From NCBI GenBank assembly GCA_002245135.1, contig NGBS01000888.1, forward strand, positions 62,001 through 126,000: DNA of 64,000 bases, written 5' to 3'. The stretch's first letter is position 1. Every line of letters starts with the position of its first letter. The stretch is from Proteromonas lacertae. Its lineage: Eukaryota. Below the pieces are notes generated by a model, which saw only the letters and a list, made by a program, of their open reading frames with translations, had not been told where the DNA came from and made no database searches. Below are positions 10,168 to 59,787 of this stretch, piece by piece. A program made the translations under genes and the position numbers.

Positions 10168-13100
10168 ATGTCTGCAAACGATTCGGAAAATGAAGAACAC
10201 CAAGAAGAAACTGGCCTTCCTATTTGCTCCCTCAAACTCGTGTCAGCTATCTCTGGAATAGATGAAGCTATTGTTAATATCTCAATGAACATACAAGGTA
10301 ACAAAGAAGGAAACATTTATAGGTTATATGGTCAACAATGTATAGTTCTGATAATCTCCTAGGTTATAATCTGAATGACGCTTTAAAAAAAGAGGAAGAT
10401 TATCAGCTCCTTCAAGTTATCGGTAAGAACTTATGTGGAGATAATGAAGAAGTAAATATTGATATATCCTTTGAATTTCTCTAATTACAGATATTTTCCT
10501 TAATTTAATATTTACTTACAAGCATTCAACTGTTTATCAGGTAGACAGTACAGATTGCGAGTTGCTTATGTAAATGGTGAAAAGGAAGAATATATTAGTG
10601 ATGAAACTATCATTAAAACACCAGCTGCACCACCACAAAAACCAACCAATGTCATTGCTACTGCTACTACCAACACTTCATTTGTCGTATATCAATTAAT
10701 AATCTAATTTCTAGTTAAAATGGGGTATGGAGAATGATAATGGTTCAATAATCACCCATTACAAATTAGAAGCTAAAGAGTCAGATGCTTCAATGTATAT
10801 GACAATCTATACAGGAAAAGAAGATTCATTTGAGTATAAGAATCTCAAACCATCCACTACCTACTGTTTCAGAGTAAAAGCAATGAGTAGTTTAGGCTGT
10901 TCAGAATATTCTAATGTCAGTGAAATCAAGACTTATACAAGTATTACCAATCCACCAAGAAATCTCACCATCAGTGACCTTAACAGTGGTGGATGTTATT
11001 TAGAATGGAAAGAACCTGAAGGATATGATGAGAAGGACTGTCCCGCTAACTATATGGTGGAAATAAGTGAAAATGACGATTGGTATTCAATCTACTATAA
11101 TGGGCCAAAGACACGGTATATTTAATATATATAATATGAATAGTTGTGAATTTCGAAACTTATTATCTAATACTGAGTACTTTGCAAGAGTTAGTTTTGT
11201 TAATTTAGATGAATCTTTAACCACTTCAGACAAAATCACATTTATATCATTTTTATAAAGAATATATATATATATATATATATAACGGTTTATTTAATTT
11301 AAATATTTCACAGAACTGAAGAGATGTTTCCATCGATTTGTAATCCTCCAATAATATCTGATGAAGAAGGTGCAATGAATGACAATAACCAACTAGAATT
11401 AACTTGGTCAATCGTAGATGAATCAATAATTGGAGTATATTATCAATTAGAAATGTGTTTGGATGATGGAAATAACAACTTCACTGCCATTTATAATGGT
11501 CAAAACACATATTTTGATGTGATTGGATTAAATGCAGGTGAGACATATTTGTTCCGTGTTTGTGCTTATAATAATATTGGTAGAGGTCCTTACAGTTCAG
11601 TATCACGATATACAATCGAAGCAGTTCGACGTAGTACAATCAGTGGTGTAAAAATCACAAGTATTACTCCAACAACAGTATCATTTGAATGGGATGAAGT
11701 AGAATTTATTGATGCTCCAGTTTCAACTTATCAATTGTTTTATAAATTATTAGATGATTTAAGAGGTGAATATAATAATAATAATAATAATAATGAGATG
11801 AGTTATTATGAATATAATCGTCAAATGATAGAACCTGGTGAACTTGTTGAAGTATATATATATATATATTATTATTATTATTATATAAATAGTATTTTGT
11901 AAAGAAAGGAATGTATCGTAAAGGTATATTCAACTATGTAACAGATGATAAATATTATTATTTAACTGATTTATATACTAAACGATCAATGTATAAATAT
12001 CGATATCAAATCAAGAGAATCATGAAATATAAAAGTGGTTATATCAACAAATTTGAAAATAGAATATCTCCAGTCTTTCGTAAAGCATTCGATACATTAT
12101 TAACACGTTGTACAGTAAAGAAATTACTAAGTGGTCATCATTATGCCTTTTACATATTTGCTAAAACAACGAATGGTCAAAAGAAATCAAGTGAAACAAT
12201 GTATATTTCTACTCCAATGAATGATGTATTTAAACCAAATCCACCTGAATTGAAATATAAGACAAGTACAAGTTTAACCTTAAAATGGAGTGATGATGGA
12301 AGTATAGAAAATGAAAATCGAAAAATTGTGGTTTGGATATTGACTATTGATAATTATAGTGATAAAAATCCAGTAGTTTATTCAGTATATATATATAATA
12401 TTGTTTTAAATAGGGAACTGATACTGAATATACAGTAAATGATTTAAGTCCAGGAAGAGCTTATCGTTTTATTTTATTCTGTAAAACTAGTAGTGGTTAT
12501 AGTGAAGGAAGTGATACAATTGGTTATTGTACATTATCCTCAGTTCCGTCCAAGACCAAATCCTCCAATGATAAAAACTGAATATGAATATGATGAAGAA
12601 AATGAAGATAATTATAATAATAATAATAATAATAATAATGAAAACTCCATAAAGTTGGAATGGTCATTTCCAATGATAGATAATGGTCATCGAATTGATA
12701 AAAATATCTTAATGATGAGTGAAGATAATAAAAATTGGAAAGAAATCTTCAGTGGTCGTGAAACAGAATATGAAATGAAATCTTTAGAAAGTGGTAAAGA
12801 ATATTATTTCCAATTATTTAGTCATAATTTAAAAGGTAAAAGTGAAGGAAGTAAAATTGTGAAATATAAAACAAATGCAAATACTCCATTAAGTCCATTA
12901 GCTCCAATCTTAAGTAGTCCTCCCAGTGCAAATTCAATAAGTTTACAATGGAATAAACCAAAAGATAATGGAAGTGAAATTCAATATTATATAATCGAAA
13001 ATGATAAAAATGAGAATTGTTCAATAATATCAAATACGAAATATACAATCGAAGATTTAAAAAGTGAAACAAATTATCGATTTCGTGTATATGCTGTAAA

Positions 13101-13732
13101 CAGTGCAGGTAAATCATCACCAAGCGAATGGTCTAAAGTTATAAGAACCTTACCAAAAGTTCCATCAAAATTACCTCCAATTACATTTGACAAAAGTAAA
13201 TTACCATCGATTAATAGTAAAATGGAGTGATGGCAATAATAACTGTAGTATCGATTATTATGTATTAGAAATGAGTGTTGGTTTAAAAGATACATTCATG
13301 GAGATTTATAGCGGTCCAAATCAAAAGATTTTATTATCTGATTTAAAACCGTCAAGTACTTATTATTTCAGAGTAAAAGGAGTGAATAGTAATGGAAGTG
13401 GTGAATTTTCAATTCCAACTTATATAAAAACAGGAAGTGATGATAATAATTCAAATAATAAGAATAAGAAAGAAGAAAGAAGAAGAAAAGATATAAATGA
13501 AAATGAAAATAACAAAAATGAGAATGAAAGAAAGAATAATAAAGGTAACAACAACAAGAGTAACAATAATAACAACAAAAATAAAATTAAAGCTGTGAAG
13601 AAGAATGTGAAAGTAAATCGAAAGAAAGAGAGTGGTATAATCGAAATAGGTTTTGATTGGAAATTCATTTTGTTAAGTTTGATAATATTATTATTGGCTT
13701 ATTTATTTCGACGATATCAGAGTTTGATATGA
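10168..13732 (+). CDS. Multi-fibronectin type III protein with C-terminal TM anchor (FNDC3-like), paralogue A
   Basis: Repeated LKPSTTYxFRVxAxN / W..P.DNG motifs and hydrophobic tail FILLSLIILLLAYLF. Contains two AT-AC introns. Apparent frameshifts near 12548 and 13205. Confidence 0.85.
10464..10515 (+). other. U12-type AT-AC intron (52 nt)
   Basis: 5' ATATCCTTTG, branch TTCCTTAAT (10496-10504), 3' TTTAC. Removal gives in-frame EVNID|LQAFNCLSGRQYRLRV. Confidence 0.9.
11244..11311 (+). other. AT-AC intron (68 nt, contains TA repeat)
   Basis: 5' ATATCATTTT, 3' TTTCAC, no usable GT before the in-frame stop. Removal gives SDKITF|RTEEMFPSIC, colinear with the paralogue's SDILNFSTFQSVPAKC. Confidence 0.82.
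12395..12547. repeat. 153-bp inverted repeat, partner 15245-15397
   Basis: Identical by eye between the two FN3 paralogues, including part of an intron. Confidence 0.9.
12646..13133. repeat. 488-bp inverted repeat, partner 14693-15180
   Basis: Identical translations on both strands (101-aa ORFs 12818-13123 and 14703-15008). Coordinate sum is constant at 27826. Confidence 0.93.
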
Positions 13733-14133
13733 AATATATATTATTATTATATAAATTGAAATGACTAAATATATATTATTTTGTTTCTTTATTTGTTTTC
13801 TCAAAATAGTTCAAAATATTAACAAAGATGATATATCAATTGAAGGAAAATGATAAAACCAATATGTCAATACAACCACAAAAAAAAAGGTGGTTCTGGA
13901 AATTAATTTTGTATATACTGTGGATAGAATGGATCTGCATTTCCAGCATAAGCTATTATATCCTCAGGTATTTTGTTCATAGCAGTCAATAATTAACAAA
14001 ATAACTCATTGAATTTATAGTCGTTAGTTACATTTTTAAAAAATGAAGAAAACCATATATATATCTTTTATTATTCTATATATACAACTAAAACGACAGA
14101 TAAACATATTTATCTATTAATATTAAACAAATA

Positions 14134-17100: not shown

Positions 17101-17618
17101 TGATTTACTGATTCAGGAGGTTCTGGAATTGAAGGAGGAATTTCAATCTTCTTTTCTTCACATATAAATTCTTTTTTACCTTGCTCATCTACATATTCTA
17201 AGTGTAGCCAATATGGTCTTCCAGATAAACAATTAATTTGGTACTGAAACTGTTAAAGAAAATGAGAATTACTTCAATTAAAATAAGATATATTTATGAC
17301 AACATGTTCTTTATCTTCACATTCATAGCTTTCTATTGTTCTAATTATTGCATATCTTTCAAGTTTTTTCAGTTTATCACTTTTATTATAATCTAAGAAA
17401 TGTTAAACTTGCCAACAAATACCTTGCTTTCCAAATAAATGGTAGAAAAAAGTAGGATTATGACCATCCAATGTAATTTCAATATCAACAATAGCAAACT
17501 TGGTAGTTGAAACAGCAGATATCATTTTTATTGATGCTTTAGGTGGTGGTATTTGTACAATTTCTGCAGCTTCTTCATCAGAATCTGGTAACTCTTCCAC
17601 TCGAGGATTTGGCTTCAT
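14134..17618 (-). CDS. Multi-FN3 protein with C-terminal TM anchor, paralogue B
   Basis: Same domain order as paralogue A, start MKPNPRVEEL, TM AVVIILLFGYMFFLL. Confidence 0.87.
17241..17291 (-). other. U12-type AT-AC intron (51 nt), same position as 10464-10515
   Basis: Minus strand 5' ATATCTTATT, branch TTCTTTAAC, 3' CAGTAC. Removal gives HVVIN|QINCLSGRPY. Confidence 0.85.
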
Positions 17619-20218: not shown

Positions 20219-20867
20219 ATCTTTATTAGAATTTGACAATCTATTGAAATATTAGATATATTTAAATAGTAAGAATAGATTCATAGTTAATAAAGTGCAT
20301 ATAATAAGAATAAACTTTAAAATCCTTTACAAGGATGTATTTTGCGATTAAGATATTCATTCTTGAGAATATATCCACAAGAATGTGTAGATATTTGAAT
20401 TATATAGTGAATAATACATACGTGATAGTACTCATGGCTTATATTAAGAACTTCGATTGAAATTTGGGATGAAGCAACAGTCTTTTTTGATTTTTTAAAT
20501 TCTAACAGTCTATTTTTCATATTTTCTAACGGTGAAACTGATTAATTTGAATATGAATAGATAAAACGTTAATATGAGTCAATGGATAGATATTGCATAC
20601 TAACTAGACATAAATATAAAGTCCTTAACCTTCCCATTTGCACAGATATTGTTTTATAAGAATAAAAACAATCTTGAAAAACCATTTTTAGTCTTAGAAT
20701 CGCTATTAACATGATATAGATTAATATGCAGATGTACTGTTCAAAATTTTCTAAATTGATCATTTATTCTACTAATTTTAATTATACAAAATAATTACTT
20801 GATAAATATAGAAAAATAATATACGCAAATTAGGCAGCAAAATAATCAACTAAAATTAAAAAAAAGA

Positions 20868-20949
20868 TGCAAACCGCGGGATTCGAACCCGCGAGTGCGA
20901 ACACACTGCGACCTGAACACAGCCCCTTGGACCTCTCGGGCAGGTTTGC
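20868..20949 (-). tRNA. tRNA-Leu(CAG)
   Basis: GCAAACC/GGTTTGC acceptor stem, anticodon loop TTCAGGT, long variable arm, GGTTCGAATCC T-arm, A discriminator, downstream T-run Pol III terminator. Confidence 0.95.
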
Positions 20950-21061
20950 ATTACAATTTACTTCTGATTTTAGGCATATAACCAGATTCAAACACAAGCC
21001 AAATCAGATTTTTGATATTTCTGTCTTTTTCTTCTTATATATTTTGTAATTTAAGATATAA

Positions 21062-29588: not shown

Positions 29589-31497
29589 ATGTTTGCAAGA
29601 ACACCAAGAACCCCTTTCAGACAAGACTTAAAAGATAATACTGGTCTATCAATAATTGATACTTGGACAACTAACTATAAAGAAGAAGGTAATAGCCTTC
29701 GATTAGCATATAATCATGGAATACCATCTATACAGTGTATAGATGTTTATTTATATTTGTTTAGCTATCTACAAAAGAGAAGCAGGTGGGCCAGAATATG
29801 ACGTGAAATTAGATTTTATAAGTACTCATCCTTCTTCTCCATCACCTCGATTTCATAAACCTAGAGAACCGCCTCCATTTATTAAGAAGGGAATTCCAGG
29901 TCCAGCAGATTATCATCCTATTGAAAGATCGACATCACCTGGATTTACATTTAATTGGGATGATATATCAAAACATGGACCAGATCACTACGCTGAAGAT
30001 CCAGGTCCAGCTAATTATAAACCAAATGCAAACTTTCATCCAATAGGAAAAGCTTATGAATTTCATCACCCATCTCCAAGATTTCAAAAAATTTCATTAA
30101 TAGATCCAGTAAGAAACAGAGGCCCAGGTGCTTATGTAAAAGTAGAAATGGAAGCTAAAACAATAACTCATTTTCCACTATCACATACTAAAAGAGATTG
30201 TTGTCAACCTTCATTTTATAAGAATAAAGGAACATTTAAATATAATACAAAAACAGATTTTGTAGAAAGAAACAAAGAAAATAATGTAGTTTTAACATCT
30301 GAAACAAAACTACAGACAATCGAAATAAAGAGTCAAATAAAAGAAGAAAGAATGGAAAAAGCCAAAATTAGAGCTGAAGAAGCATATAAAGAAAAATTAG
30401 AAAGATATCATCAGTATCAAGAAAAATTGAACTTTAAAAAGAGAAGAGAATTGAATTTTAAATTCAAATCAAAATGGTATAGATATTTATCTCATCCAAT
30501 ACTTTTGAATAATTTAAGATATATTTTAGTTACAGAGTGTAAACAAAGAGAAATGGATTATAAATTAAATGAAATTGTTAAAAAGAGAGCTATTATAATG
30601 GGATTTATACATAATATATATCTTTTTGTTTAATCTAATAGAAATTTGTTTTCATTAACATTTTATAAGATATTAATGAGAAGAATTCGTAAAATTCAGA
30701 ACTTTTTGATTAAGAGACATAGGTATAGATGTAGAAAAAGACTAGAAAGAAACGCATTAATAATAAAACCATTTGTTATGCAAGTAATCTTGAAGAATAA
30801 TATAAAATTAATACATATAAAAATGGAAGTATTAAGAAAATGGCTTTCTAGATGGATTTACTGTAAAAGAGAATGTTTTAAGTTATTTGAAGATTTAGGT
30901 GTATATTTGAATTCAATGAATAAAGAGAAAATAACCAAAAAAATTCTTAAAAAATATGAAGGGAAGAAAAAGCCAATGTTTAATTATATGGGAGAAAAAA
31001 TAGCATCAAATCCCAAAAAGAAGAAGAAAATAAAATTGAATATAACAGAAGAAAAGGTGTTTGAAATATCACATAAAATATATGATAATTTAAAAGAGCA
31101 AAATAAATATTCACAGATAATCAAAAGAAAAAATTCTGAAAAGAAATATACCATATACAGAATGGGAACATTTCATCCAAAAGTTGAATTATATTTATCC
31201 GAATTCTATGATGCTTATTTTGCTGACTATAAAGAATACAAACGAAAAGAAGCTGAAGAAGAAGAAGCAAATAGACCCAAACCCAAACCACCACCTTCCC
31301 AACCATCATCAAGAAGAACTTCACAGATTAGTGATGGAAATAGAAAAAGTAGAATATCAATTTTGAGAAGGAAATCTAGAATATCAACAGCATCTAAAAG
31401 AAATTCTGAAATTGTGAGTGATAAAATACCTGAAACTATTCAAGAAGAAGAATCAATTAAGGATGATAATAATAGTAATAAGATAGTTGAAGTATGA
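29589..31497 (+). CDS. SHIPPO/ODF3-like PGP-repeat protein with basic, IQ-like C-terminal region
   Basis: PGPADY, PGPANY and GPGAY repeats; IRKIQNFLIKR IQ-like segment. Confidence 0.65.
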
Positions 31498-31549: not shown

Positions 31550-32006
31550 GAATTGTATTGATATTTCTTTATTTACATACATTTCCATTCTATGCATATC
31601 ATTTTCGGTTTTAATTTCGGATATATACGTAAAAGGAATAGATATTGAAGGTATCACTACTATTGAACGAGATTTACAACTTATCAAATCCATTAAATGA
31701 GTTTCTGCTATTGACTCCAGAGTAGATCTATCACAATACAAATCACTACTATCTAGAATCTATTCAAATGTTATATATTTTATTATACGATTGGATTTCG
31801 AAGTGATCGACTTTAATAATATGTATATCTGATTTTGAATAAGATTTTAAATAACACTATTAAATCATAATATTCATTATACAGTATAAGAAAGACAATA
31901 TAAACAACACAAAAAAGACGTACAATTCTTCAGGTGTAATATATTTGGGTAAAACATCTATACTTATTAAGTTTTTATGACTTGAAACTCCGAAATCAAA
32001 GTTCAT
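31550..32006 (-). pseudogene. 3'-truncated copy of the RING-finger gene at 36238/53254
   Basis: Matches up to EISIQF, then diverges into unrelated sequence. RING domain absent. Confidence 0.75.
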
Positions 32007-32405
32007 TCGTTATAAAAATCAAAATTTAATATCAAACTATGTTTGAACTTTCTGAAACGATATAATTTGTTTTATTCTTATAACTCAGCCATTCTTTATC
32101 AAACACATTATATTATCATCATTAACAAATACACAAACATTAACATCAACAAAACTTAATATTTTACTTACTTTTATAATAATTACCCCATTTACCACTG
32201 TTTTTACTATACCAATCCATTGGATAAATTGCTTTATATTCACATTCACCAATACAACAATAAAACTCATAGGGAGTTAAAACTGGTTTGGAAAAGCCAG
32301 TTCCCCAATCTATACACAACCTTGGACAAGCTATTTCTATCCAATAATCAACATCATCAAATAATGTCAACTAGATATTATACACATAATAGAATATATA
32401 TATAT
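31550..32405. repeat. 856-bp segment repeated directly at 52798-53653 and inverted at 35887-36694
   Basis: Constant offset 21248 to the right-hand copy, with only a few substitutions seen. Confidence 0.92.
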
Positions 32406-36080: not shown

Positions 36081-36237
36081 AATATTAAGTTTTGTTGATG
36101 TTAATGTTTGTGTATTTGTTAATGATGATAATATAATGTGTTTGATAAAGAATGGCTGAGTTATAAGAATAAAACAAATTATATCGTTTCAGAAAGTTCA
36201 AACATAGTTTGATATTAAATTTTGATTTTTATAACGA

Positions 36238-37932: not shown

Positions 37933-39597
37933 ATGAAGAAGATGAAACTACTTACTATTAATGAGATACTAGAGAAGAAGATGTTAAAATACTGTGAAAA
38001 CAACAATAATATGATGGATTATTGTTCATCTTCTATTTATCCGTTTCAAACACAAATTATAGCAAATATCATAATATTAAGTGAATATGGCTCATCAAAT
38101 AGTAATTTGAAGCTTTATAATATAATGCGTGAAAGAGATGACAACATCTATAATAAATCGAAAATATATAGTTTCTACTTAAATGTATTGAAGAAAAAAA
38201 TGATAAAAATGAGTAAAATAGCAAAAGGTTCAGATCATAATCTAATGAAATATAATGAAAGAAAAGAAACATTGCATAATATTGATTATAGTATTGTTAG
38301 ATTTCCAATAGTTTATCCATCCCAATATTATCTCCAAAGTTATAAATATGATGAAAATCGAGATGCTTTAGTTGAATCATACAACAATGAACCAAACGAA
38401 AGAATATTATCAATATTATTGATGATGAAATTGTATAAAGAAGATGAATCTATAAAAGACAAACTAAAGTTTCAAAAATATCATAAATGCAGATATGGAG
38501 AATGTTATTTGGATGAAATGATATTCAATGTTAATGTATATAGAAGAGATAAGGAAAGAGTAAAAATAGATTCAAAATGTGTATGTTTATGCGAAGAAGG
38601 AATTAATTTCTGTTTAAGAATGCTAAAACTAATAAATCCAACAAAACTCAAATTTGGTATAAATATTCCACTCAAGTATGAAAAATTATTTTTCTCATAT
38701 TTTACTCAATTATTAAATCTTCGAGAATTAGATTTATCGCATTGTAATCTTACTTATCGTTTTGTTGAATCCTTTACAAAATCAATTCCATTAATGAAAT
38801 TGGAATATATTAACCTTGAAAGTATATATTGCTTATGCTATTATGAAATAGATAATCCAATTAGTTCAAAAGGGTTTAAATTAATATTACCATATCTACA
38901 TTTATTGATCAACAAAGAAAATAAACTAAACCTTTGTCAAATGAATTTAAATGATGAATCGATGATATTATTATCACAAGAATTATTAAAATATCCAAAA
39001 CTTAGAAGAATAGATATTAGATATAACCATAGTATTCATTCCAATGGATTAAAAACCTTATTTTCCAAATTTCCTATATCTAAAATAGTATTTGAATTAA
39101 ATGGAAATAATAAAGAATTACTGATTGATAAAGAAATTCCAGAATTACTCAAATATATCAATTATGGTCAATTGAATCTGAATAGTTTAGAAATGGATGA
39201 TGATTTTTTTAAATCCTTCATTTCTATTAGGTTTAATGAATTTAGAGAAATATGGAAGATTGATTTGAGCAGTATAACATAATATGTTATATATTGTTAG
39301 ATAATAAACTTACATATGAAAGTATAGAAATATTGATTAATAATTTATTATCATTAACATATCTTGAAGAGGTTCTTTTAAGTGGAAATGAGATAGGAGA
39401 TGATGGAATGAAAATATTATCTCCATATTTGTATTTATTAAAAGATGATAAAAATAGAATAGATTGTTCTAGTATATTAATTATATTTAATTATAATAGA
39501 AATGGGGTTATCTATAATTGGATTAAAATGTTTTGTGGATGGTTTAAAAAATATTAAGGAAAAGGTAAAACTCAATTTAAGTGATAATCATATATGA
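37933..39597 (+). CDS. Degenerate pseudokinase-remnant + RNI-like LRR protein (paralogue of 1-1716)
   Basis: Shares YNNEPNERILS, CYLDEMI and LKLINPTKLK with the gene at the window start. LRRs LRELDLSHCNL and LEEVLLSGNEIGDDG. Confidence 0.72.
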
Positions 39598-39855
39598 GGT
39601 AGAGAAGGGGATAGGACAAAAGGAGGATATAGTTCCAGAAGGAGTCTTTTCTGTAACCAGGAATATAATAATCTAAATTTATTGATATTGTTTTTTGAAA
39701 AAAATAATAAAAACATCAAAGCTGTACTCTGAAGTTTTTATTAGAGTTAATTATTTGCTGTCAATAATAAGAACATAGTATGAATAGATGCATTATGTAA
39801 TTATGTAATGTATAGTGAAAATAATAGACTAATGGAAGATATTAACATACATACA

Positions 39856-41389
39856 TTAATAATTAAAATAATTAAAATGTTCACATGAATATAAATACGA
39901 ATAGAATAGGGACTTATTATTGCTATTATCTGGAATTGGTAATAAATCTGAAAAAATTTCATCTTCTTCATCGGATAATAAAGTAACTTGTCTTGCGAAT
40001 GAATCATTATCATCAATTATGAATTCAAAATAAGGAAAATCATCTTCTGTTTTTGAACTAAGCTTTATTGTGTTTTCCTCTGCTATTGATTTTACACAAT
40101 TGTAACATATATATTCAGATTTTACTTTAAATTCTTTTGATATTACATTACTTGAAGATAATTCTGTTATTTCTGTTTGTGATTTAAACTCATTTACTTT
40201 CGCTTTCTTTGCTGGATTGTTTTGACAAATGTCATTATCTATTTTTCTTTTATTACTATTTCTATTTTCATTTAAACTTTCATTGTTTTTCTTTTTTAAA
40301 AATTCTTTATATCCGAGTGGAAGTTGCATTTCACTTAAATCTGGATATTCATCTATGTATAACTGATTCTCAAAGTAATATCTAATCTTATCTAAGTAGG
40401 AAAATTCTTCATATCTATAAAGAAGAATGAATAATGTTATTATATACTTTTGTTTCTTACAAGCTGACATATTATTCCATAATTTACCAATAGTCTTATT
40501 TATACTACTCTTATCTTTTAAATCGCCTGTATAATACTTTTTTATTATTTCTTCTCTTGAGTATTTTGCATATACATTAAATGCACATATTGGTGGAGAT
40601 ACTAATCCCTTAGTCATTGGCTTTGATTTATTCATTAAATAATTAGAATATTCTCGAATCACATTTGTTATGATAAATTCTTTTATAATTTTTTTTTCCA
40701 TTTTATATAAGGAATAAAAACAGCTTTCTATATTGTTTGAATTATTCTTGACAATCACATTATAACTGTTATTTTTCTCATCAAATATCTTATTGTTTAT
40801 TATTTCTATTATCTTTTTCGATTTGTTACTACTTCCTTCAATCTTGTTTATCATTGCTGACCATACTTTCCTTAATGACCATATATTACTTTTACTCTTA
40901 TTAATCTTTTTGTATGAAAAGTAATATAAATTTGATGATAAATCTTTAATCTTATATCCTTTTGATGAATCATATTTAACCTTATAAACATTGTATCCAT
41001 TAGATATTATTATTGTAAAACTAAACATATAATGTAGAGATTTTACTGAGTCAATGTAGAAATTAAGTTATACATTTCTGAACATAGCTTTCATAATTGA
41101 TATTCTTGCTAAGATACTCGAAATGAATAGATTCATTTGATATTAACAACGTATTCTCATTAGAATCTTTAACAATTGCAATAAACATCCCATTTTCACC
41201 TATTCCTATCGTTTTAAATTCATTTACAATAACCTAAACAATAATGCAATAATAATGTCTTCTATATACTCGTTCTTTAGGATCAATGTAAAAATCATTG
41301 TCAATAGTATGATTTCTATTTGAATCTGAGTACATAATTTGATAATCTACTGTTTGACCAATATTTACATTCAACAAAATTGAGCTCAT
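39856..41389 (-). CDS. HMG-box protein
   Basis: PPICAFNVYAKYSREEI..INKTIGKLWNNMSACKKQK|YEEFSYLDKIRY. Upstream exons start at ATG 41389. Confidence 0.78.
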
Positions 41390-41640
41390 GATGAAATCGA
41401 AAATTTAGCAAAAATTTAGCTGAGGCTAATTTTTTATGAAATTTTTATATAACGAATGAAAATTAATTTAGACCTTTCATATATTAAGAAGCTCGAGCCA
41501 AGTTTTACAATTGTTTTATCTAGACTGCTATTTTTGTTATTTGATAGTTCTATAGTATTAAAAGGCATACATCTTCTTAAGTATATCTCATTATGGTAAT
41601 TTGGATAGAAACTAACATCTTATTTTAACATTTTTACAGA

Positions 41641-43431
41641 ATGATGATACATAAAGGAGGTGGTCGTTCAATAATAGGCGAGGGTAATATATCAAACATA
41701 AATGTATCAATGAAAAGGCCAAGTAATAAGATTCTTCAGCCGCTCTACCCACCAATTGAAGTAATTGTACATCCAATTACTTCAATTATTGTATATTTAT
41801 ATAGTAATGGTATAAAATATTTATAGGAAGAAATAGAAGAATCCGCCAAGTATGATAAATTACCTGAAAGCGATTATATTTATGGTGAAAGTCTGTTCCA
41901 CAAATCTACTGCTAAAATAAATCACACAAAGATAGAATATAATAATGAAACAAATGTGAAAGAATCGGAAAGAAATTTTAATAATGATAATATTATTACA
42001 ATAGAATTAAGTGATATACAGGAATATCCTGATGAAAATTATTTCATAGAAGATTATATTGTATTTTTTATAACTTATTTCATATGTTTTTAGAATAGAT
42101 TAAAATGGGATGAAGAAATCTATGGAGCTGAATCATATTCAAGATTTTGCCCAATAAAGATGAATTCAGAAGTTGTTAATTTAAATAACACTGGTAATTA
42201 CACATTACAATCCAATAAAACAACAATCATAGATTCAAGGTGTTATAAAAAAAGAAAGACTGAAACAGATAGAATTATAGAAATAGTGCAAAATTATCAA
42301 GATTGGCATTATGAATTTAGAGATAATGAATTAATATTAGAACTAGAAAACTTATTAAATGGTCCAAAATCTAAAATATTAATCAGAATAAAAGAAAAAA
42401 ATATTACAATAATTAACTCAATATTTCCAAAGCATGGATATTTCTATGATTTAGTAAATGCACAAATGATTTCACATGGACTTAAACAAAATACTCAACC
42501 AATATCAAATTTTGAAAATGTATTCATTCAACTAAATGTATTAGTTAAAGAAGCAAGTGACTATATAATATTAAAATCCAACCAAATTTTTGATGTCATA
42601 TAAACTTAATTTATATAATTTAATTTTCACTTTATTATTTTGAACATAAATTATATAAAAATTCACAATTTTTTAGATTATATAGATTTACATAGTAATA
42701 TTATAAATAATTAATCTTTTATTGTATTAATAGATAATGAAATAACTGAATATGGATGGTATAATTTTATTCCCAAACATGGTTGTTTTGAGAATCTTGC
42801 TTATCTAAACATCTCCTGTATTTCTTAATTTTATTTAATATATATTTATATTAGCAACTAATTTAAAAGATAGATGGATGCGAATGTATATTGCATTTAT
42901 TAGAAGAAAATGAACTACCAAACTTAGAAGAATTGTATGTTGATTGTATGTATTTGAGAATAATCGTATAAAATAATAGATAATAATATAACTGATATTG
43001 GAGTAGAAATACTCTGTGATGGTTTTTCATTGGGAAATAGTTATTCAATCTGTGTATTATCATTAGTTGGAAATAGAATCTGTGATCCAGGTGTTTCAAT
43101 ATTAAGTGATATTTGTATAGAAGGATTATTACCAAATCTGAGAAAATTGAATTTAGGTGAGAATAAGATTTCCAATGAAGGAGCAATAAAATTATGTGAA
43201 TATTTAGAAAGTAATAATAGTAATACATTAGAAGAATTGTATTTAAACGATAATTCAATTGGTTATGCTGGAGGTAAAATAATAAAAGATTGTTTAATGA
43301 AAGGTGGAGGATATTATTTAAATAATATTGTTTTACATCGAAATTTATTAACACCAACAATGTTAAATCGATTAAAAGAAGCAATAATGATGAGAAGAAG
43401 AGGTTTCTCAGTAGAAGAAACAGAATTATAA
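41641..43431 (+). CDS. RNI-like LRR protein (full-length copy, crosses the inner arm boundary)
   Basis: GT-AG introns 42557-42676 and 42695-42733 give VKEANYIDLHNNEITEYG. Further LRRs include LRKLNLGENKISNEG. One A-run indel near 42866. Confidence 0.68.
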
Positions 43432-45415: not shown

Positions 45416-45520
45416 TGTATTTATATGTTGTGTAATAATTGTGTTTTATGAATTGTAATAAATAAAGCCGTTTCTATTTTTCATTTTAGATTTTAAAATC
45501 TTTGATTTTCTTAATTACAG

Positions 45521-45801
45521 ATGTCTTCAGAAGCTTCACAAAATAGGTATTGAGTTATGTTATATTTACATATAGTTGGCCAGATTTAGTTGGTCATGAT
45601 GCTGATGAAGTAGTAAGACTAATCAAAGAACAAAACCCATCTTTGAATGTAGTGAAATTAGGTGAAGTATGTTATTAAAAGAATGATATTTAAATTAAAT
45701 AGAATCAACCAGCTACAATGGATTATCGTATGGATAGAGTTCGAGTAGTATTTGATAGTGCCAATAATGTAGCTAATTCCACCAACAGTTGGATAGATTG
45801 A
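45521..45801 (+). CDS. Potato inhibitor I (MEROPS I13, eglin/CI-2) family serine-protease inhibitor, copy 1
   Basis: Three exons: MSSEASQNSWPDLVG..IKEQNPSLNVVKLGE|NQPATMDYRMDRVRVVFD. A 1-nt insertion near 45773 shifts the PPTVG tail. Confidence 0.85.
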
Positions 45802-46093
45802 ATGAATAATTATGTTTTAGTGAAATAATAATAGTTATGAGAAATTCATAATTTTATTTCGTTATAGAAGAATTTCATCATCATAATATAAAATAAATAA
45901 TCATATATTCTATTAAAGAAATGATAACTAAAGTGTTAATTGTAGAAATAACACTTTAACTTACTATTCAAAATTCTCACTAGTTAAATAATATATAAAA
46001 AAATAATTCATTCTTCTTTATGTGCAAACTATGGTGAGTTATGTAAAATAAAAATTCAAGCTTAAGCTTGCTCATTTTCTATTTTTTGTAAAT

Positions 46094-46762
46094 ATGGATA
46101 ATATAGAGACTTTAGTGATTTATTATATTGATGAATTAATTAAAATTAGTGAATGTAGCCCAAACCAAAATCAATTTACTAATATGCTTTGGTCTATGAG
46201 TAAAGATGACTTAAATAGAACATTTAGTGTATTAAACAGATATGGAATGTGGAGAAAATTCCAATATCTTGCGAGATGTTTAATTCCTATCCTATATGCA
46301 AAGATTGTCTTACTTCAACAATATAATACTGGTTTATGTAATGAATGTGCTGAAGCATTGATTATGTTGTTAAAATATCCAATAATAGACTCAGAAGTTT
46401 TGATTAGTGTTAATTTTATTAGTTATTTGTTGTCAATAATAAGAACATAGTATAAATAATATATTATGTAATGTATAGTGTAAATAATAAACAAATGGAT
46501 GAATATATAAAAAAGTTGATAATTTTGACAATGCAAAGATTACCTTTATACCAACAAAATAAATTATATTCAGCTATGTACATAGTATATTTTGATGTTA
46601 TATATATATGAAATAGAGATACTTTAATTCATCACCATTGGTGGATTTATTCTATTTACAACCTCAAAAATCACATTATCCAAATGGATTATATGGTTCT
46701 GCACTTGAAGATCGTATTTTCATACATACAATACCATGCGATGATGATAATATAGCTTATTT
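46094..46762 (+). pseudogene. 5'-only fragment of the USP gene at 59821-63394
   Basis: Lies inside the inverted duplicate and is cut 5 bp before the right 6.8-kb arm. No catalytic domain. Confidence 0.8.
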
Positions 46763-46767
46763 CAATG

Positions 46768-47851
46768 CAATAAAAGATTAATTATTTATAATATTACTAT
46801 GTAAATCTATATAATCTAAAAAATTGTGAATTTTTATATAATTTATGTTCAAAATAATAAAGTGAAAATTAAATTATATAAATTAAGTTTATATGACATC
46901 AAAAATTTGGTTGGATTTTAATATTATATAGTCACTTGCTTCTTTAACTAATACATTTAGTTGAATGAATACATTTTCAAAATTTGATATTGGTTGAGTA
47001 TTTTGTTTAAGTCCATGTGAAATCATTTGTGCATTTACTAAATCATAGAAATATCCATGCTTTGGAAATATTGAGTTAATTATTGTAATATTTTTTTCTT
47101 TTATTCTGATTAATATTTTAGATTTTGGACCATTTAATAAGTTTTCTAGTTCTAATATTAATTCATTATCTCTAAATTCATAATGCCAATCTTGATAATT
47201 TTGCACTATTTCTATAATTCTATCTGTTTCAGTCTTTCTTTTTTTATAACACCTTGAATCTATGATTGTTGTTTTATTGGATTGTAATGTGTAATTACCA
47301 GTGTTATTTAAATTAACAACTTCTGAATTCATCTTTATTGGGCAAAATCTTGAATATGATTCAGCTCCATAGATTTCTTCATCCCATTTTAATCTATTCT
47401 AAAAACATATGAAATAAGTTATAAAAAATACAATATAATCTTCTATGAAATAATTTTCATCAGGATATTCCTGTATATCACTTAATTCTATTGTAATAAT
47501 ATTATCATTATTAAAATTTCTTTCCGATTCTTTCACATTTGTTTCATTATTATATTCTATCTTTGTGTGATTTATTTTAGCAGTAGATTTGTGGAACAGA
47601 CTTTCACCATAAATATAATCGCTTTCAGGTAATTTATCATACTTGGCGGATTCTTCTATTTCTTCCTATAAATATTTTATACCATTACTATATAAATATA
47701 CAATAATTGAAGTAATTGGATGTACAATTACTTCAATTGGTGGGTAGAGCGGCTGAAGAATCTTATTACTTGGCCTTTTCATTGATACATTTATGTTTGA
47801 TATATTACCCTCGCCTATTATTGAACGACCACCTCCTTTATGTATCATCAT
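46768..47851 (-). pseudogene. 3'-truncated copy of the LRR gene 41641-43431
   Basis: The arm ends inside an intron, so the downstream LRR exons are absent. Confidence 0.7.
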
Positions 47852-48102
47852 TCTGTAAAAATGTTAAAATAAGATGTTAGTTTCTATCCAAATTACCATA
47901 ATGAGATATACTTAAGAAGATGTATGCCTTTTAATACTATAGAACTATCAAATAACAAAAATAGCAGTCTAGATAAAACAATTGTAAAACTTGGCTCGAG
48001 CTTCTTAATATATGAAAGGTCTAAATTAATTTTCATTCGTTATATAAAAATTTCATAAAAAATTAGCCTCAGCTAAATTTTTGCTAAATTTTCGATTTCA
48101 TC

Positions 48103-49636
48103 ATGAGCTCAATTTTGTTGAATGTAAATATTGGTCAAACAGTAGATTATCAAATTATGTACTCAGATTCAAATAGAAATCATACTATTGACAATGATTT
48201 TTACATTGATCCTAAAGAACGAGTATATAGAAGACATTATTATTGCATTATTGTTTAGGTTATTGTAAATGAATTTAAAACGATAGGAATAGGTGAAAAT
48301 GGGATGTTTATTGCAATTGTTAAAGATTCTAATGAGAATACGTTGTTAATATCAAATGAATCTATTCATTTCGAGTATCTTAGCAAGAATATCAATTATG
48401 AAAGCTATGTTCAGAAATGTATAACTTAATTTCTACATTGACTCAGTAAAATCTCTACATTATATGTTTAGTTTTACAATAATAATATCTAATGGATACA
48501 ATGTTTATAAGGTTAAATATGATTCATCAAAAGGATATAAGATTAAAGATTTATCATCAAATTTATATTACTTTTCATACAAAAAGATTAATAAGAGTAA
48601 AAGTAATATATGGTCATTAAGGAAAGTATGGTCAGCAATGATAAACAAGATTGAAGGAAGTAGTAACAAATCGAAAAAGATAATAGAAATAATAAACAAT
48701 AAGATATTTGATGAGAAAAATAACAGTTATAATGTGATTGTCAAGAATAATTCAAACAATATAGAAAGCTGTTTTTATTCCTTATATAAAATGGAAAAAA
48801 AAATTATAAAAGAATTTATCATAACAAATGTGATTCGAGAATATTCTAATTATTTAATGAATAAATCAAAGCCAATGACTAAGGGATTAGTATCTCCACC
48901 AATATGTGCATTTAATGTATATGCAAAATACTCAAGAGAAGAAATAATAAAAAAGTATTATACAGGCGATTTAAAAGATAAGAGTAGTATAAATAAGACT
49001 ATTGGTAAATTATGGAATAATATGTCAGCTTGTAAGAAACAAAAGTATATAATAACATTATTCATTCTTCTTTATAGATATGAAGAATTTTCCTACTTAG
49101 ATAAGATTAGATATTACTTTGAGAATCAGTTATACATAGATGAATATCCAGATTTAAGTGAAATGCAACTTCCACTCGGATATAAAGAATTTTTAAAAAA
49201 GAAAAACAATGAAAGTTTAAATGAAAATAGAAATAGTAATAAAAGAAAAATAGATAATGACATTTGTCAAAACAATCCAGCAAAGAAAGCGAAAGTAAAT
49301 GAGTTTAAATCACAAACAGAAATAACAGAATTATCTTCAAGTAATGTAATATCAAAAGAATTTAAAGTAAAATCTGAATATATATGTTACAATTGTGTAA
49401 AATCAATAGCAGAGGAAAACACAATAAAGCTTAGTTCAAAAACAGAAGATGATTTTCCTTATTTTGAATTCATAATTGATGATAATGATTCATTCGCAAG
49501 ACAAGTTACTTTATTATCCGATGAAGAAGATGAAATTTTTTCAGATTTATTACCAATTCCAGATAATAGCAATAATAAGTCCCTATTCTATTCGTATTTA
49601 TATTCATGTGAACATTTTAATTATTTTAATTATTAA
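48103..49636 (+). CDS. HMG-box protein, duplicate
   Basis: Mirror of 39856-41389 with an identical 390-aa ORF. Confidence 0.78.
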
Positions 49637-49894
49637 TGTATGTATGTTAATATCTTCCATTAGTCTATTATTTTCACTATACATTACATAATTACATAAT
49701 GCATCTATTCATACTATGTTCTTATTATTGACAGCAAATAATTAACTCTAATAAAAACTTCAGAGTACAGCTTTGATGTTTTTATTATTTTTTTCAAAAA
49801 ACAATATCAATAAATTTAGATTATTATATTCCTGGTTACAGAAAAGACTCCTTCTGGAACTATATCCTCCTTTTGTCCTATCCCCTTCTCTACC

Positions 49895-51559
49895 TCATAT
49901 ATGATTATCACTTAAATTGAGTTTTACCTTTTCCTTAATATTTTTTAAACCATCCACAAAACATTTTAATCCAATTATAGATAACCCCATTTCTATTATA
50001 ATTAAATATAATTAATATACTAGAACAATCTATTCTATTTTTATCATCTTTTAATAAATACAAATATGGAGATAATATTTTCATTCCATCATCTCCTATC
50101 TCATTTCCACTTAAAAGAACCTCTTCAAGATATGTTAATGATAATAAATTATTAATCAATATTTCTATACTTTCATATGTAAGTTTATTATCTAACAATA
50201 TATAACATATTATGTTATACTGCTCAAATCAATCTTCCATATTTCTCTAAATTCATTAAACCTAATAGAAATGAAGGATTTAAAAAAATCATCATCCATT
50301 TCTAAACTATTCAGATTCAATTGACCATAATTGATATATTTGAGTAATTCTGGAATTTCTTTATCAATCAGTAATTCTTTATTATTTCCATTTAATTCAA
50401 ATACTATTTTAGATATAGGAAATTTGGAAAATAAGGTTTTTAATCCATTGGAATGAATACTATGGTTATATCTAATATCTATTCTTCTAAGTTTTGGATA
50501 TTTTAATAATTCTTGTGATAATAATATCATCGATTCATCATTTAAATTCATTTGACAAAGGTTTAGTTTATTTTCTTTGTTGATCAATAAATGTAGATAT
50601 GGTAATATTAATTTAAACCCTTTTGAACTAATTGGATTATCTATTTCATAATAGCATAAGCAATATATACTTTCAAGGTTAATATATTCCAATTTCATTA
50701 ATGGAATTGATTTTGTAAAGGATTCAACAAAACGATAAGTAAGATTACAATGCGATAAATCTAATTCTCGAAGATTTAATAATTGAGTAAAATATGAGAA
50801 AAATAATTTTTCATACTTGAGTGGAATATTTATACCAAATTTGAGTTTTGTTGGATTTATTAGTTTTAGCATTCTTAAACAGAAATTAATTCCTTCTTCG
50901 CATAAACATACACATTTTGAATCTATTTTTACTCTTTCCTTATCTCTTCTATATACATTAACATTGAATATCATTTCATCCAAATAACATTCTCCATATC
51001 TGCATTTATGATATTTTTGAAACTTTAGTTTGTCTTTTATAGATTCATCTTCTTTATACAATTTCATCATCAATAATATTGATAATATTCTTTCGTTTGG
51101 TTCATTGTTGTATGATTCAACTAAAGCATCTCGATTTTCATCATATTTATAACTTTGGAGATAATATTGGGATGGATAAACTATTGGAAATCTAACAATA
51201 CTATAATCAATATTATGCAATGTTTCTTTTCTTTCATTATATTTCATTAGATTATGATCTGAACCTTTTGCTATTTTACTCATTTTTATCATTTTTTTCT
51301 TCAATACATTTAAGTAGAAACTATATATTTTCGATTTATTATAGATGTTGTCATCTCTTTCACGCATTATATTATAAAGCTTCAAATTACTATTTGATGA
51401 GCCATATTCACTTAATATTATGATATTTGCTATAATTTGTGTTTGAAACGGATAAATAGAAGATGAACAATAATCCATCATATTATTGTTGTTTTCACAG
51501 TATTTTAACATCTTCTTCTCTAGTATCTCATTAATAGTAAGTAGTTTCATCTTCTTCAT
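49895..51559 (-). CDS. Pseudokinase-remnant LRR protein, duplicate
   Basis: Mirror of 37933-39597. Confidence 0.72.
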
Positions 51560-52093
51560 ATCTTTTATATATTTTGCTTCAAAATCTACTTCAGTATCAC
51601 TCTTTACTACCCGCTCTTTTATCTATCCGATATATTAAATAATAATACTTCCAATTTCAGTATGTGATATTTCAATAACTCTTCCATACAATGAAATTTG
51701 GGTGAAATTAACATTTTTGAAAATTGAGTCGTTTCAGTTATTGAATATTCTTTTTCTTCTTTTCTTGTTTAATTACCCATATTTTAAATTTTTCCAACAT
51801 CCATGATATACTTCCGCATATTGTTGATGCAATTATAAACCTACTTCATTTCTACTCATTTCTTCTGTTTATTTCGTCTATTCCAATAAATTATTTCATA
51901 TCTTTGAGTAATCATGGTAAGATTAATTATATCATTTTATTTGCTTAGAAATCAAGAAAAACAATTTTGTTTCAAAATATTTAGTCGTTTCATTTTTGAC
52001 TTTTCAAAAGAACATGATTATATATAGAATTACATAAATTACACATTTGTAATTGTTTGAATATTGTTTCATTACAAAAATATTAATAAATAA

Positions 52094-53254
52094 TCATATA
52101 ACTAAATATGCTTCATTCATACTTCGACAAACTGGACATTTATCTACTTCTTTTATACATTCATCACAGATGATTTTATGTCTACAACCTACAAATATTG
52201 TATTTACTTTATTTGTCAAACAAATTATACAATCATCATCTTTCTCTGTTTTACTACTTCTCTTTTCTTCACTCTTTGTTACTATTGGTTCAACTATTGT
52301 TCTAGTTTCAGTTTTACTTTCAGTAGTTGTCATTATTATTGGAGGTGTTATTTCAGTTGTATTTATATTTCCTACTGTTGTTCTTGATGTAACATTATTA
52401 TTTTCAGATGATTGGACTTTATCATTATTACTATCAATTACACTCAGTGAATTAGTCAATAATGGAGAAGTAGAATGACTATTACACAATGGATCAGTTA
52501 CATTTATATTAAATACATCTCTTGTATTAATCAACATCCTACTATTACTATGATTATTATTATTATTATTAGATTGAGAATTTTCTTCATTTACTACACC
52601 CAATGGTATTACTTCCATTCCACCTATTTCTCTTTGAGATATTCGGATTGTCTTTATAATTATCTTCTTCATATTAATGGTAATAATATTTCTTCATCAG
52701 TATATCCATTCAATGGTTTCAATACTGATTTTATTACATTTACTCTTTCATTTCTATCAATATAATGAGTAACATTCTTAAATTCAACTCCATAAAAGAA
52801 TTGTATTGATATTTCTTTATTTACATACATTTCCATTCTATGCATATCATTTTCGGTTTTGATTTCGGATATATACGTAAAAGGAATAGATATTGAAGGT
52901 ATCACTACTATTGAACGAGATTTACAACTTATCAAATCCATTAAATGAGTTTCTGCTATTGACTCCAGAGTAGATCTATCACAATACAAATCACTACTAT
53001 CTAGAATCTATTCAAATGTTATATATTTTATTATACGATTGGATTTCGAAGTGATCGACTTTAATAATATGTATATCTGATTTTGAATAAGATTTTAAAT
53101 AACACTATTAAATCATAATATTCATTATACAGTATAAGAAAGACAATATAAACAACACAAAAAAGACGTACAATTCTTCAGGTGTAATATATTTGGGTAA
53201 AACATCTATACTTATTAAGTTTTTATGACTTGAAACTCCGAAATCAAAGTTCAT
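52094..53254 (-). CDS. C-terminal RING protein, duplicate
   Basis: Mirror of 36238-37398. Confidence 0.7.
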
Positions 53255-53411
53255 TCGTTATAAAAATCAAAATTTAATATCAAACTATGTTTGAACTTTC
53301 TGAAACGATATAATTTGTTTTATTCTTATAACTCAGCCATTCTTTATCAAACACATTATATTATCATCATTAACAAATACACAAACATTAACATCAACAA
53401 AACTTAATATT

Positions 53412-53653
53412 TTATTTACTTTTATAATAATTACCCCATTTACCACTGTTTTTACTATACCAATCCATTGGATAAATTGCTTTATATTCACATTCACCAA
53501 TACAACAATAAAACTCATAGGGAGTTAAAACTGGTTTGGAAAAGCCAATTCCCCAATCTATACACAACCTTGGACAAGCTATTTCTATCCAATAATCAAC
53601 ATCATCAAATAATGTCAACTAGATATTATACACATAATAGAATATATATATAT
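53412..53653 (-). pseudogene. DPH1: Orphan DPH1 last exon with partial intron
   Basis: Homology to the DPH1 locus stops in the intronic (TA)n tract. WGTG->WGIG change. Confidence 0.88.
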
Positions 53654-57294: not shown

Positions 57295-57781
57295 TATACA
57301 ATGGTTATGTACAGAAAGATTGTTATTCAGCCAATCCAAAACCAGAATTTATAAGATATATTTGTGATAAAAAACATATCATTTTGTTATATCTTTTTTT
57401 AAAATAGATTCGTATTAGCATTGTTTTAATTCATTTTAAGCAAATAAATCAGTAGAATATGAAGTGATCGATAAACCTTATGCAATATCAAACAATGAAA
57501 GTATTTGTGAAGTTAAAGTAAGTGGATCAATATTGCATGTTAAGAAATTGAGTGATAAAACATCAAAATTGACATTAAAATTTAAATGTAAACTAAATGG
57601 AACTGTGAGAATAGATGTGGTATATAAAATTGGTAGAAGAGATAGAATTAATAACTCAACTACATTTTCGATATTGAAAGATTGTTACATAAAAAAAAGA
57701 GAAGTGAATGAGATTCACTATTTTGCTATTCCTTCATTGGTTTTAGTTGTTGTTTTATATATTTTATTATTTATTATTTAA
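57295..57781 (+). CDS. Hypothetical protein with hydrophobic C-terminus
   Basis: ORF 57464-57781 plus a probable upstream exon. Start not found. Confidence 0.4.
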
Positions 57782-57869
57782 TAAAGTACTTTAAAATGTT
57801 TTTATACCTCTAATAACAATAAAAAAATATAAATATTACTTTATTACAACTAAATCAATCACAATTATA

Positions 57870-58220: not shown

Positions 58221-58660
58221 TGATACAACTTAGATTCTACAAAAAATGCAAAAATACTTATGTATTTGTTTATTGTAAGTCCAACTTTCTATTTGTATTA
58301 CAATTATTAGCTTTATCAACCATTTACACAACCTCTACACTGAAATTCAAATGATTAAACTCAAGCTTTTGAATAAAGCTTGAGTTTTTTTTTCGATTTT
58401 AGAGTGTTATGTATGGGAAATAAAGTAAATTGAATTATGTAGAAAAATATGGTTTTAATATAAATATTTAATTAAGTAACATCTTGATCTTCAATCTCTT
58501 AATTTTCTTCTGTCATCTGTAGTGACAAAACAATCTAAACAGATATATCTATTCTTTTAAATATATCTCACACCATTTTCGTCATATTCGAATCATTAAA
58601 ATGTATTTTGAATAAAAACATTTCATAATAGATTTGAAAAAAGATATTTTATCAAAAATC

Positions 58661-59787
58661 ATGTCTGATTGCATGCCATATTGCTTTTTAGGTAATACAG
58701 GGTTGAAAGTGTCCAGAATTGGATATGGAGCGTGGGTAAGTTTTGGAAGTCAAGTAGATGAAGAATTAGCGTATAAGATAATAAAGAAAGCAATTGATAG
58801 TGGAATAAATTTCTTTGATAATGCAGAAGTGTATAATAAAGGTGTAGCTGAAACTATAATGGGAAAAGTGTTTAAGAGATTGAATTTAAGACGAAGTAGT
58901 TATGTAATTACAACCAAATTGTTTTGGGGAAATACTGAAGATGAAAGTTATCCAAATGACTTTGGTTTATCTCGAAAACATATAATTGAAGGATTAACAG
59001 AGTCTTTGAAAAGATTACAATTAGACTATGTTGATGTGGTATATGCTCATCGTCCTGATATGTATACGCCGATGGAAGAAACTGTAAGAGGTTTTGATTA
59101 TGTAATTAACAAAGGAATGGCGTTATATTGGGGAACAAGTGAATGGAGTGCTGAACAAGTAAGAGAAGCAATAATATCTTTTTTTAAAATATGAATTTGA
59201 TAGTTTTCCTTAATAGACTTGTGTTTAAGAGATTAGTAAGAGATTGGGATTAATTGGTCCAATAGTTGAACAACCACAATATAATATGCTTCATCGTGAA
59301 AAGGTAGAAAAAGAATATTTACGTTTGTATGAAACAGATAAACTTGGTTTAACAATTTGGTCACCTTTAGCCAGTGGTGTATTAACAGGTAAATATAATG
59401 ATGGAATTCCTGAAGGAAGTAGATTGAATTTAAGTGAAATGAAATCATTAAAAGATTCAATATTAGATGGTACAAGATTTGGTAAATTTGAAGATGTTCA
59501 GAAGTTATGCAAAGAGTTAAAGGTGATAAGTGATAAAATAGGATGTAGTGAAGCTCAATTAGCTTTGGCTTGGGTATTAAAGAATGAAAATGTGAGTGTA
59601 ATGTTACTTGGAGCTTCAAAAGTAGAACAGCTTGAAGAAAATATCAAATGTCTTGAAGTATTACCAAAATTAACAAAAGAAGTAATGGAAGATGTATATT
59701 CAATTATTTATTTCATTTTTATAGATTGAAAAGATATTAAAGAATAAACCAACACCTTTCCCAGATTGTAGAACATGGAATAATTAA
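58661..59787 (+). CDS. Aldo-keto reductase, voltage-gated K+ channel beta-subunit (KCNAB/KAB1) type
   Basis: LGNTGLKVS, FFDNAEVY, TTKLFWG, GLSRKHIIEG, AHRPD, YWGTSEWS, EQPQYNM, WSPLASGVLTGKY. Confidence 0.93.
59174..59228 (+). other. U12-type intron with non-canonical AT-AA ends (55 nt)
   Basis: 5' ATATCTTTTT, perfect branch TTCCTTAAT (59206-59214). Only this 3' end restores the family-length helix VREAI|EISKRLGLIGP. Confidence 0.75.

Follow-up and report, generated by a model that had tools for sequence, protein, structure and literature searches.

What interrupts the genes at four places in this 64-kb window (the whole 64,000-nt stretch of DNA that was analyzed), where the reading frame breaks and no acceptable GT-AG intron restores it? 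At each of these places, the frame is mended exactly by taking out an ATATC-starting intron of 51 to 68 nt. We consider it likely that these segments are true spliceosomal introns, bounded by AT-AC or AT-AA and excised by the U12-dependent (minor) spliceosome of an AT-rich protist that is probably a relative of Blastocystis; the dependence on the U12 machinery is a step that we infer from sequence. An earlier reading of the same DNA, referred to here as the original prediction, had singled out these four junctions together with two further candidates, and in what follows s1 to s4 denote the firm ATATC-starting introns and s5 and s6 the weaker candidates.

These sites have to be judged beside the ordinary introns of the window. 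Exons were chained with a simple Viterbi model that used codon log-odds trained on the 16 longest open reading frames (ORFs) and a splice-site position weight matrix (PWM) trained on 61 seed introns. The resulting gene models contained 126 GT-AG introns, 95 of which had a PWM score of at least 8 and a length of at most 60 nt; ten of the 95 are copies inside large repeats, which leaves 85 distinct sequences, and the other 31 modeled introns, weak or long and in several cases spurious (antisense models), stand outside the count. The 85 distinct GT-AG introns are 21 to 56 nt long, with a median of 32 nt and a mode of about 29 nt, and 70 of them fall between 22 and 40 nt, the range that the original prediction had given for most introns. 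They begin with GTAT in at least 79 cases (the local major 5' consensus is GTATAW), end mostly in AATAG or TATAG, and lie in phases 0, 1, and 2 in 36, 25, and 24 cases, respectively. We also surveyed all pairs of coding frames that can be joined by a deletion of 16 to 90 nt, 268 in total, of which 128 had a GT-AG option. ATATC combined with TYHTTRAY 6 to 18 nt from the end was present in 4 of the 268 pairs (s1, s3, s4, and s5), and the best GT-AG solution was poor in each (score of 3.0 or lower).

We confirmed that genuine frame breaks occur at 10464, 11244, 17291 (minus strand), and 59174, and the flanks of s1 to s4 all have good coding scores. The first, s1 (10464..10515, plus strand), is a 52-nt AT-AC intron in phase 0 of an FN3-repeat gene; its 5' site ATATCCTTT and its branch site TTTTCCTTAAT, 11 nt before the terminal AC, match the strict U12 pattern exactly, with textbook signals at every position, and the best GT-AG alternative is 88 nt long with a score of -4.5. 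The same gene carries s2 (11244..11311, plus strand), a 68-nt AT-AC intron in phase 0 with the 5' site ATATCATTT and a weak branch site, TTTATTTAAT, 13 nt before the AC. Most of its extra length is accounted for by an internal (TA)n run, and there is no frame-keeping GT-AG option within 16 to 90 nt. On the minus strand, in an inverted paralog of the FN3 gene, s3 (17241..17291) is a 51-nt AT-AC intron, again in phase 0, with the 5' site ATATCTTAT and the branch site TTTTCTTTAAC at 11 nt from the AC; the best GT-AG score at this site is -5.7. The fourth, s4 (59174..59228, plus strand), is a 55-nt AT-AA intron in phase 0 of a gene for a Kv-beta-like aldo-keto reductase, with the 5' site ATATCTTTT and the branch site TTTTCCTTAAT, 14 nt from the intron end. 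Its best GT-AG alternative (59159-59231, 73 nt, score of 0.3) would delete six conserved residues, VREAIE, which align with IRQAYD of a homolog, and an AT-AG intron ending at 59231 would cost one residue.

Homology across the junctions is restored when these segments are removed. At s4, the Pfam profile continues over the junction (positions 1-149, then 153-288), and in the homologous protein P0080, the match to exon 1 runs through residue 162 and that to exon 2 starts at residue 164; there is no gap, since the single residue in between is encoded by the last codon of exon 1. The FN3 genes at 10168-13730 (plus strand) and 17618-14136 (minus strand) are tail-to-tail inverted paralogs, and once the proposed introns are cut out, both encode stop-free proteins that can be aligned from the first methionine. 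Introns s1 and s3 occupy a homologous position in the two paralogs (amino acids 91 and 99) and have ATATC, ATTTTCYTTAA, and a terminal TAC in common around a diverged interior; they are one event, copied through gene duplication. Intron s2 is private to the plus-strand copy, the minus-strand paralog being uninterrupted there, and the alignment is free of gaps after the 68 nt are cut. The GT-AG introns of the pair follow a similar pattern, with two common to both paralogs and one private to each. Given these shared and private GT-AG introns and the private s2, there has been turnover in both intron classes since the duplication.

The claim that the four junctions are best explained by ATATC introns was thus borne out by the frame breaks, the poor or absent GT-AG options, and the restored homology. 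The two further candidates, proposed from 30618 and 57389, are both probable AT-starting introns, the former with a GT-AG rival and the latter with a second possible donor beside it, at 57376. The former, s5 (30618..30668, plus strand), is a probable 51-nt AT-AA intron in phase 2 with the 5' site ATATCTTTT and the branch site TTTTCATTAAC (TTCATTAAC, one mismatch) 9 nt from the end, and its removal eliminates the only in-frame TAA that separates an ORF of 296 codons from one of 287. The latter, s6 (57376..57444, plus strand), is one AT-starting intron in a small gene with two possible pairs of ends. Either it spans 57376-57440 (65 nt, donor ATATCATTT, AT-AG, phase 1), or, with an equally good fit, 57389-57444 (56 nt, donor ATATCTTTT, AT-AA, phase 2). 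The donors lie 13 nt apart and both are workable, the branch site TTGTTTTAAT is weak, and the best GT-AG solution is 89 nt long with a score of -6.4. The s6 gene had no Pfam family matches.

The motifs of these introns resemble those of U12-type introns, whose 5' site is [A/G]TATCCTT. The match is exact in s1, and each of the others has a single mismatch at position +6 (ATATCTT in s3, s4, s5, and s6; ATATCAT in s2), so that +6 is C, T, or A, in agreement with the relaxed 5' consensus that had been proposed. Position +5 is C in every one of the six candidates, compared to 2 of the 85 GT-AG introns. The consensus branch motif TTCCTTAAT lies 11 nt from the 3' end in s1 and 14 nt in s4, and TTCTTTAAC, with one mismatch, lies 11 nt from the end of s3. 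Within 8 to 15 nt of the end, TTRAY is present in all six candidates versus 11 of 85 GT-AG introns, and TCYTTAAY in three of six versus none of 85. The combination ATATCYT-N15-45-TCYTTAAY occurs three times in the window (0.49 expected; 3 of 100 shuffles reach three), and all three matches fall exactly at frame breaks. The U12 signature claimed by the original prediction holds for three near-consensus branch sites, at the canonical distance of 11 to 14 nt from the 3' end, and is weak in s2 and s6. The termini are AT-AC in s1, s2, and s3, AT-AA in s4 and s5, and AT-AG or AT-AA in s6; AT-AA is reported as the commonest noncanonical terminus of known minor introns (PMC10639083).

Length also sets these introns apart. 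From s1 to s6 they measure 52, 68, 51, 55, 51, and 56 or 65 nt, so four of the six fall in the 51- to 55-nt range first suggested for them, and 3 of the 85 GT-AG introns reach 50 nt. The four firm introns differ in length from the GT-AG introns (Mann-Whitney p = 5e-4), which upholds the idea of a size class of their own, at least 50 nt long against a median of 32 nt; the corresponding six-intron value is p = 5e-5, with s6 entered at 50 nt and not at 56 or 65 nt. The expected dominance of AT starts was complete (six of six), and phase 0 was found in four of the six. No long introns of the GTATC type were found in the window.

Several observations weigh against assigning these introns to the minor spliceosome of a Blastocystis relative. 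The 5' motif ATATCYTT is by itself not enriched in the window (30 occurrences versus 24 expected) and, for that reason, proves little. In s2 and s6, the branch motif amounts to TTTAAT or TTTTAAT. Rfam scans of the 64-kb window, at E values up to 1, detected none of the minor small nuclear RNAs (snRNAs) U11, U12, U4atac, and U6atac, and Pfam domains specific to U11/U12 proteins were absent among the window ORFs scanned. At s4, moving both intron ends one base upstream gives an identical mRNA, and homology cannot fix the exact intron ends. A 42-nt GT-AG intron (30628-30669), with an atypical GTTTAA donor and a score of 3.0, competes with s5. Finally, the placement near Blastocystis described below comes from a single gene.

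Some of these points would fit real AT-AC or AT-AA introns that are excised by the major (U2-type) spliceosome, as happens with rare U2-type AT-AC introns of animals. Such introns, a rare variant handled by the major spliceosome, retain 5' and branch motifs of the major type. The local consensus GTATAW differs from ATATC at two positions only, no convincing U12 branch site is present in s2 or s6, the 11 GT-AG introns mentioned above also have TTRAY close to their 3' ends, and no minor snRNA gene was seen in a search confined to 64 kb. The present introns share AT-AC termini with the U2-type class but differ from it in their C at +5, in TTCCTTAAT, and in their greater length relative to local major introns; their 5' sites read ATATC[CTA]T, their branch motif is of the U12 type, and none is shorter than 50 nt. 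The C at +5 in every candidate, the occurrence of TTCCTTAAT or TTCTTTAAC 11 to 14 nt from the end of three candidates but of none of the 85 major introns, and the distinct length class all speak against the major spliceosome, as does the reported use of the minor spliceosome by the nearest named relatives, Blastocystis (PMC5608401). On balance, we regard excision by the major spliceosome as unlikely.

We find it less probable still that some or all of the sites are not such introns at all and reflect wrong gene models (weak GT-AG introns or adjacent genes), pseudogenes, or assembly errors. This explanation draws on s5, with its 42-nt GT-AG alternative and two ORFs that may be separate genes, and on s6, which lies in a small gene without homologs. 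It is opposed by the good coding character of the s1 to s4 flanks, by GT-AG alternatives that are absent at these sites or cost conserved residues, and by the stop-free, collinear proteins that result from cutting exactly these segments; moreover, errors would not place U12 motifs at the correct spacing three times.

We give almost no credence to the notion that the segments are eliminated at the DNA level, like the TA-bounded internal eliminated sequences (IES) of ciliates, and were captured in a germline-type assembly. The segments are indeed short, AT rich, and located within coding sequence, and the borders of s1 can be shifted so that each carries TA. TA-to-TA excision breaks the frame at s3 and s4, however, the standard genetic code is in use, and the DPH1 protein encoded in the window groups with stramenopiles and not with ciliates. 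In addition, a ciliate genome survey is reported to have detected no minor-spliceosome snRNAs, and it describes ciliates as being without U12-type introns (PMC13685798).

If the minor spliceosome does remove the AT-starting introns, ATATCYTT would be recognized through base pairing by U11 and TTCYTTAAY by U12, a spacing of 9 to 14 nt from the branch site would determine the 3' site, and U4atac/U6atac.U5 would perform the catalysis. The branch motif ends 40 to 42 nt from the 5' end in s1, s3, s4, and s5, which suggests that these four introns are near the lower length limit of this machinery, well over the major mode of about 29 nt.

Which organism the window comes from bears on how these introns are to be compared. 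GC content is 23 to 28% throughout (about 25%), and the standard stop codons apply: 59 frames stay open for 120 codons or more, up to 621. The Pfam domains encoded are of common eukaryotic types and include FN3 repeats, BTB-BACK-Kelch, EGF, rhomboid, kinase, Ras, DPH1, USP, and aldo-keto reductase. The best-conserved exon, that of DPH1 (32702-33292, minus strand), has as its nearest relatives protein P0198 and then two Blastocystis strains. Quick maximum likelihood trees place the window and P0198 together as sister to Blastocystis among stramenopiles, with support given as Shimodaira-Hasegawa-like approximate likelihood ratio test (SH-aLRT) values only, of 92 (LG+G4) and 90 (LG+C20 with posterior mean site frequencies). 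From this one gene and the genome statistics, we infer a Blastocystis relative, possibly Proteromonas. The Proteromonas lacertae genome is reported at 27.0% GC and 52.2 Mb, with an N50 of 93 kb and no public annotation, and the same source describes tortoise Blastocystis with 21 to 23% GC, canonical stop codons, and longer and more variable introns (PMC12129017). The Blastocystis polyadenylation motif TGTTTGTT was not enriched in the window (5 occurrences versus 5.9 expected). Introns of 22 to 27 nt are also reported for myxozoans and dicyemids (PMC13644364; PMC6543705). We rejected an origin from either group, given that of their splice-site motifs only GTa and AG remain, in contrast to GTATAW and ATAG in the window, and that DPH1 groups with Blastocystis.

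How do these introns compare with known minor introns? They resemble canonical U12 AT-AC introns of animals and plants, which have the 5' site ATATCCTT and the branch site TTCCTTAAY 10 to 15 nt from the 3' end, and s1 agrees with these at every position; AT-AC ends are shared as well, and AT-AA is a known variant. Minor introns of animals and plants make up less than 0.5% of introns, are mostly GT-AG, are biased away from phase 0, and are usually far longer. Those of the window, in contrast, all start with AT, have a length of about 50 nt and a variable +6 position, and lie mostly in phase 0.

The original prediction had treated the pattern as unprecedented, a view that does not stand given that it has already been reported in Blastocystis (PMC5608401; PMC10639083). 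Of the 35,412 introns described in Blastocystis ST1, 346 are U12-type and typically AT-AC; the major introns there measure 30 nt, and all four minor snRNAs are present (PMC5608401; Gentekaki et al. 2017). Of 253 pipeline-identified minor introns in Blastocystis, 77% were AT-AC and 49% lay in phase 0, and their median length was 39 nt (PMC10639083; Larue and Roy 2023). The likeness is considerable: in both, tiny major introns (mode of 30 nt there) are accompanied by short minor introns as a second class, AT-AC ends dominate, phase 0 is common (four of six here), and the organisms are probably related. With six introns, the proportions in the window are rough, and they agree with a Blastocystis type of system in which AT starts dominate, phase 0 is frequent, and the introns are very short beside major introns of about 30 nt. 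The differences are the length (51 to 68 nt here versus the median of 39 nt), an AA or AG end in two or three of the six, a local share of about 4 to 7% versus about 1%, and the combination of 25% GC, canonical stop codons, and no TGTTTGTT signal. The minor snRNAs have been shown in Blastocystis, whereas the present system is known from the 64-kb window alone. Blastocystis is the closest known case, and by their 5' sites and termini, and in part by their branch sites, the present introns appear to behave like those of Blastocystis and like canonical U12 introns. Our literature search returned nothing linking Proteromonas with U12 or the minor spliceosome. In Physarum polycephalum, more than 20,000 minor introns are reported genome-wide, with RNA sequencing support and coevolved snRNAs (Larue, Elias and Roy, bioRxiv 10.1101/2020.10.12.336362). 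The window resembles Physarum in having a high share of minor-type introns and a changed consensus and in hinting, through s2 in one of two paralogs, at recent gain, but the count here comes from one window only.

The original prediction had also proposed an expansion of these introns in the lineage. The 4 to 6 AT-starting introns beside 85 GT-AG introns amount to 4.5 to 6.6% (exact 95% limits, 1.2 to 13.8%), or to 3.3 to 4.9% if all 126 modeled GT-AG introns minus the ten repeat copies are counted. This local density is roughly ten times the usual one of less than 0.5%, and it also exceeds that of Blastocystis ST1 (346/35,412). The figure derives from a single 64-kb window that was picked for these introns, in which s1 and s3 go back to a single event and s2 shares a gene with s1. 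At a Blastocystis-like density of 1%, a Poisson estimate gives at least four such introns in about 1.6% of windows, and a few windows per genome would reach four by chance. An expansion throughout the lineage therefore cannot be claimed. A fuller scenario is conceivable but doubtful, in which the lineage is an AT-rich, flagellated Blastocystis relative where minor-type introns form about 5% of introns, with thousands per genome, second only to Physarum, all AT-starting, with a fixed distance of about 40 nt from 5' site to branch site, frequent AA ends, and ongoing gain and loss, as seen with s2.

Several other features of the genes with AT-starting introns were noted. The FN3 paralog proteins are about half identical over their N-terminal 500 residues, and a tract of 89% DNA identity (12258-13133 versus 15534-14693) suggests gene conversion. 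A bacterial origin of the aldo-keto reductase, which would imply de novo gain of s4, was rejected given that the gene lies outside the bacterial cluster; a quick tree places it beside long-branched sequences from fungi and oomycetes. In the s5 gene, the N-terminal ORF (29743-30630, plus strand) contains repeated PGP..Y motifs, and its sole Pfam match is a nonsignificant one to the sperm-tail PG-rich (SHIPPO) repeat (E = 0.88), a weak hint of a flagellated organism. The first 18 nt of s4 (59174-59191) and those following the second donor of s6 (57389-57406) are identical (ATATCTTTTTTTAAAATA) in different genes 1.8 kb apart, and the overall similarity of the two introns is only marginally above that of shuffles (p = 0.04). 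A common origin of the AT-starting introns was not retained, as their pairwise similarity barely exceeds that of shuffles.

Additional U12 candidates from a permissive gene model were discarded: 61968-61897 is a GTATAT...AATAG major intron, the site at 19040 is antisense to a Kelch gene, those at 36181/53311 and 53626 lie in a poorly coding, thrice-repeated element without a branch site, and a 28-nt major intron is the better explanation for 48375-48471 (GTATCTTA). Among GT-AG introns, a 20-nt candidate at 8044-8063 (plus strand; GTATAAATGTTAGTAAATAG, PWM score of 14.8) would link a 621-codon low-complexity ORF with a 500-codon rhomboid ORF, where the chained model took a longer, weaker option; if real, it would be among the shortest introns of the window. 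Microsatellite runs of (TA)n or (TAA)n/(ATT)n occur in many introns of both classes (for example, 11262-11284, 9568-9587, and 2650-2675). The large repeats include a near-perfect inverted repeat (35881-42728 and 46764-53611) with 6,848-nt arms at 99.93% identity, separated by a 4-kb spacer; the arms hold whole genes (RING, LRR, and HMG-box ORFs), and the structure may be either a true palindromic duplication or an artifact of assembly. Further copies are 45483-46765 versus 62722-64000 (inverted, 99.0%) and 31550-32405 versus both 52798-53653 (direct) and 35881-36694 (inverted), at 99.4 to 99.7%. ARAGORN identified a tRNA-Leu(CAG) at 20866-20950 (minus strand), where Rfam gave only a weak tRNA-Sec-like match (26 bits, E = 0.64).

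As a rule, minor introns are uncommon and ancient, and most are GT-AG. Gene callers limited to GT-AG introns will break all of the genes described here, and interest in this system rises considerably if a share of about 5% holds genome-wide. Lineages with frequent, AT-AC-dominated, phase-0-rich minor introns are the best for studying the gain and the minimum length of these introns, and so far, they are represented by Blastocystis and, in another way, by Physarum. With a second relative that is more variable in its introns and uses canonical stop codons, the turnover of minor introns could be dated inside one clade, and it could also be tested whether the class of about 50 nt marks the physical lower limit of the U11/U12 di-snRNP (small nuclear ribonucleoprotein).

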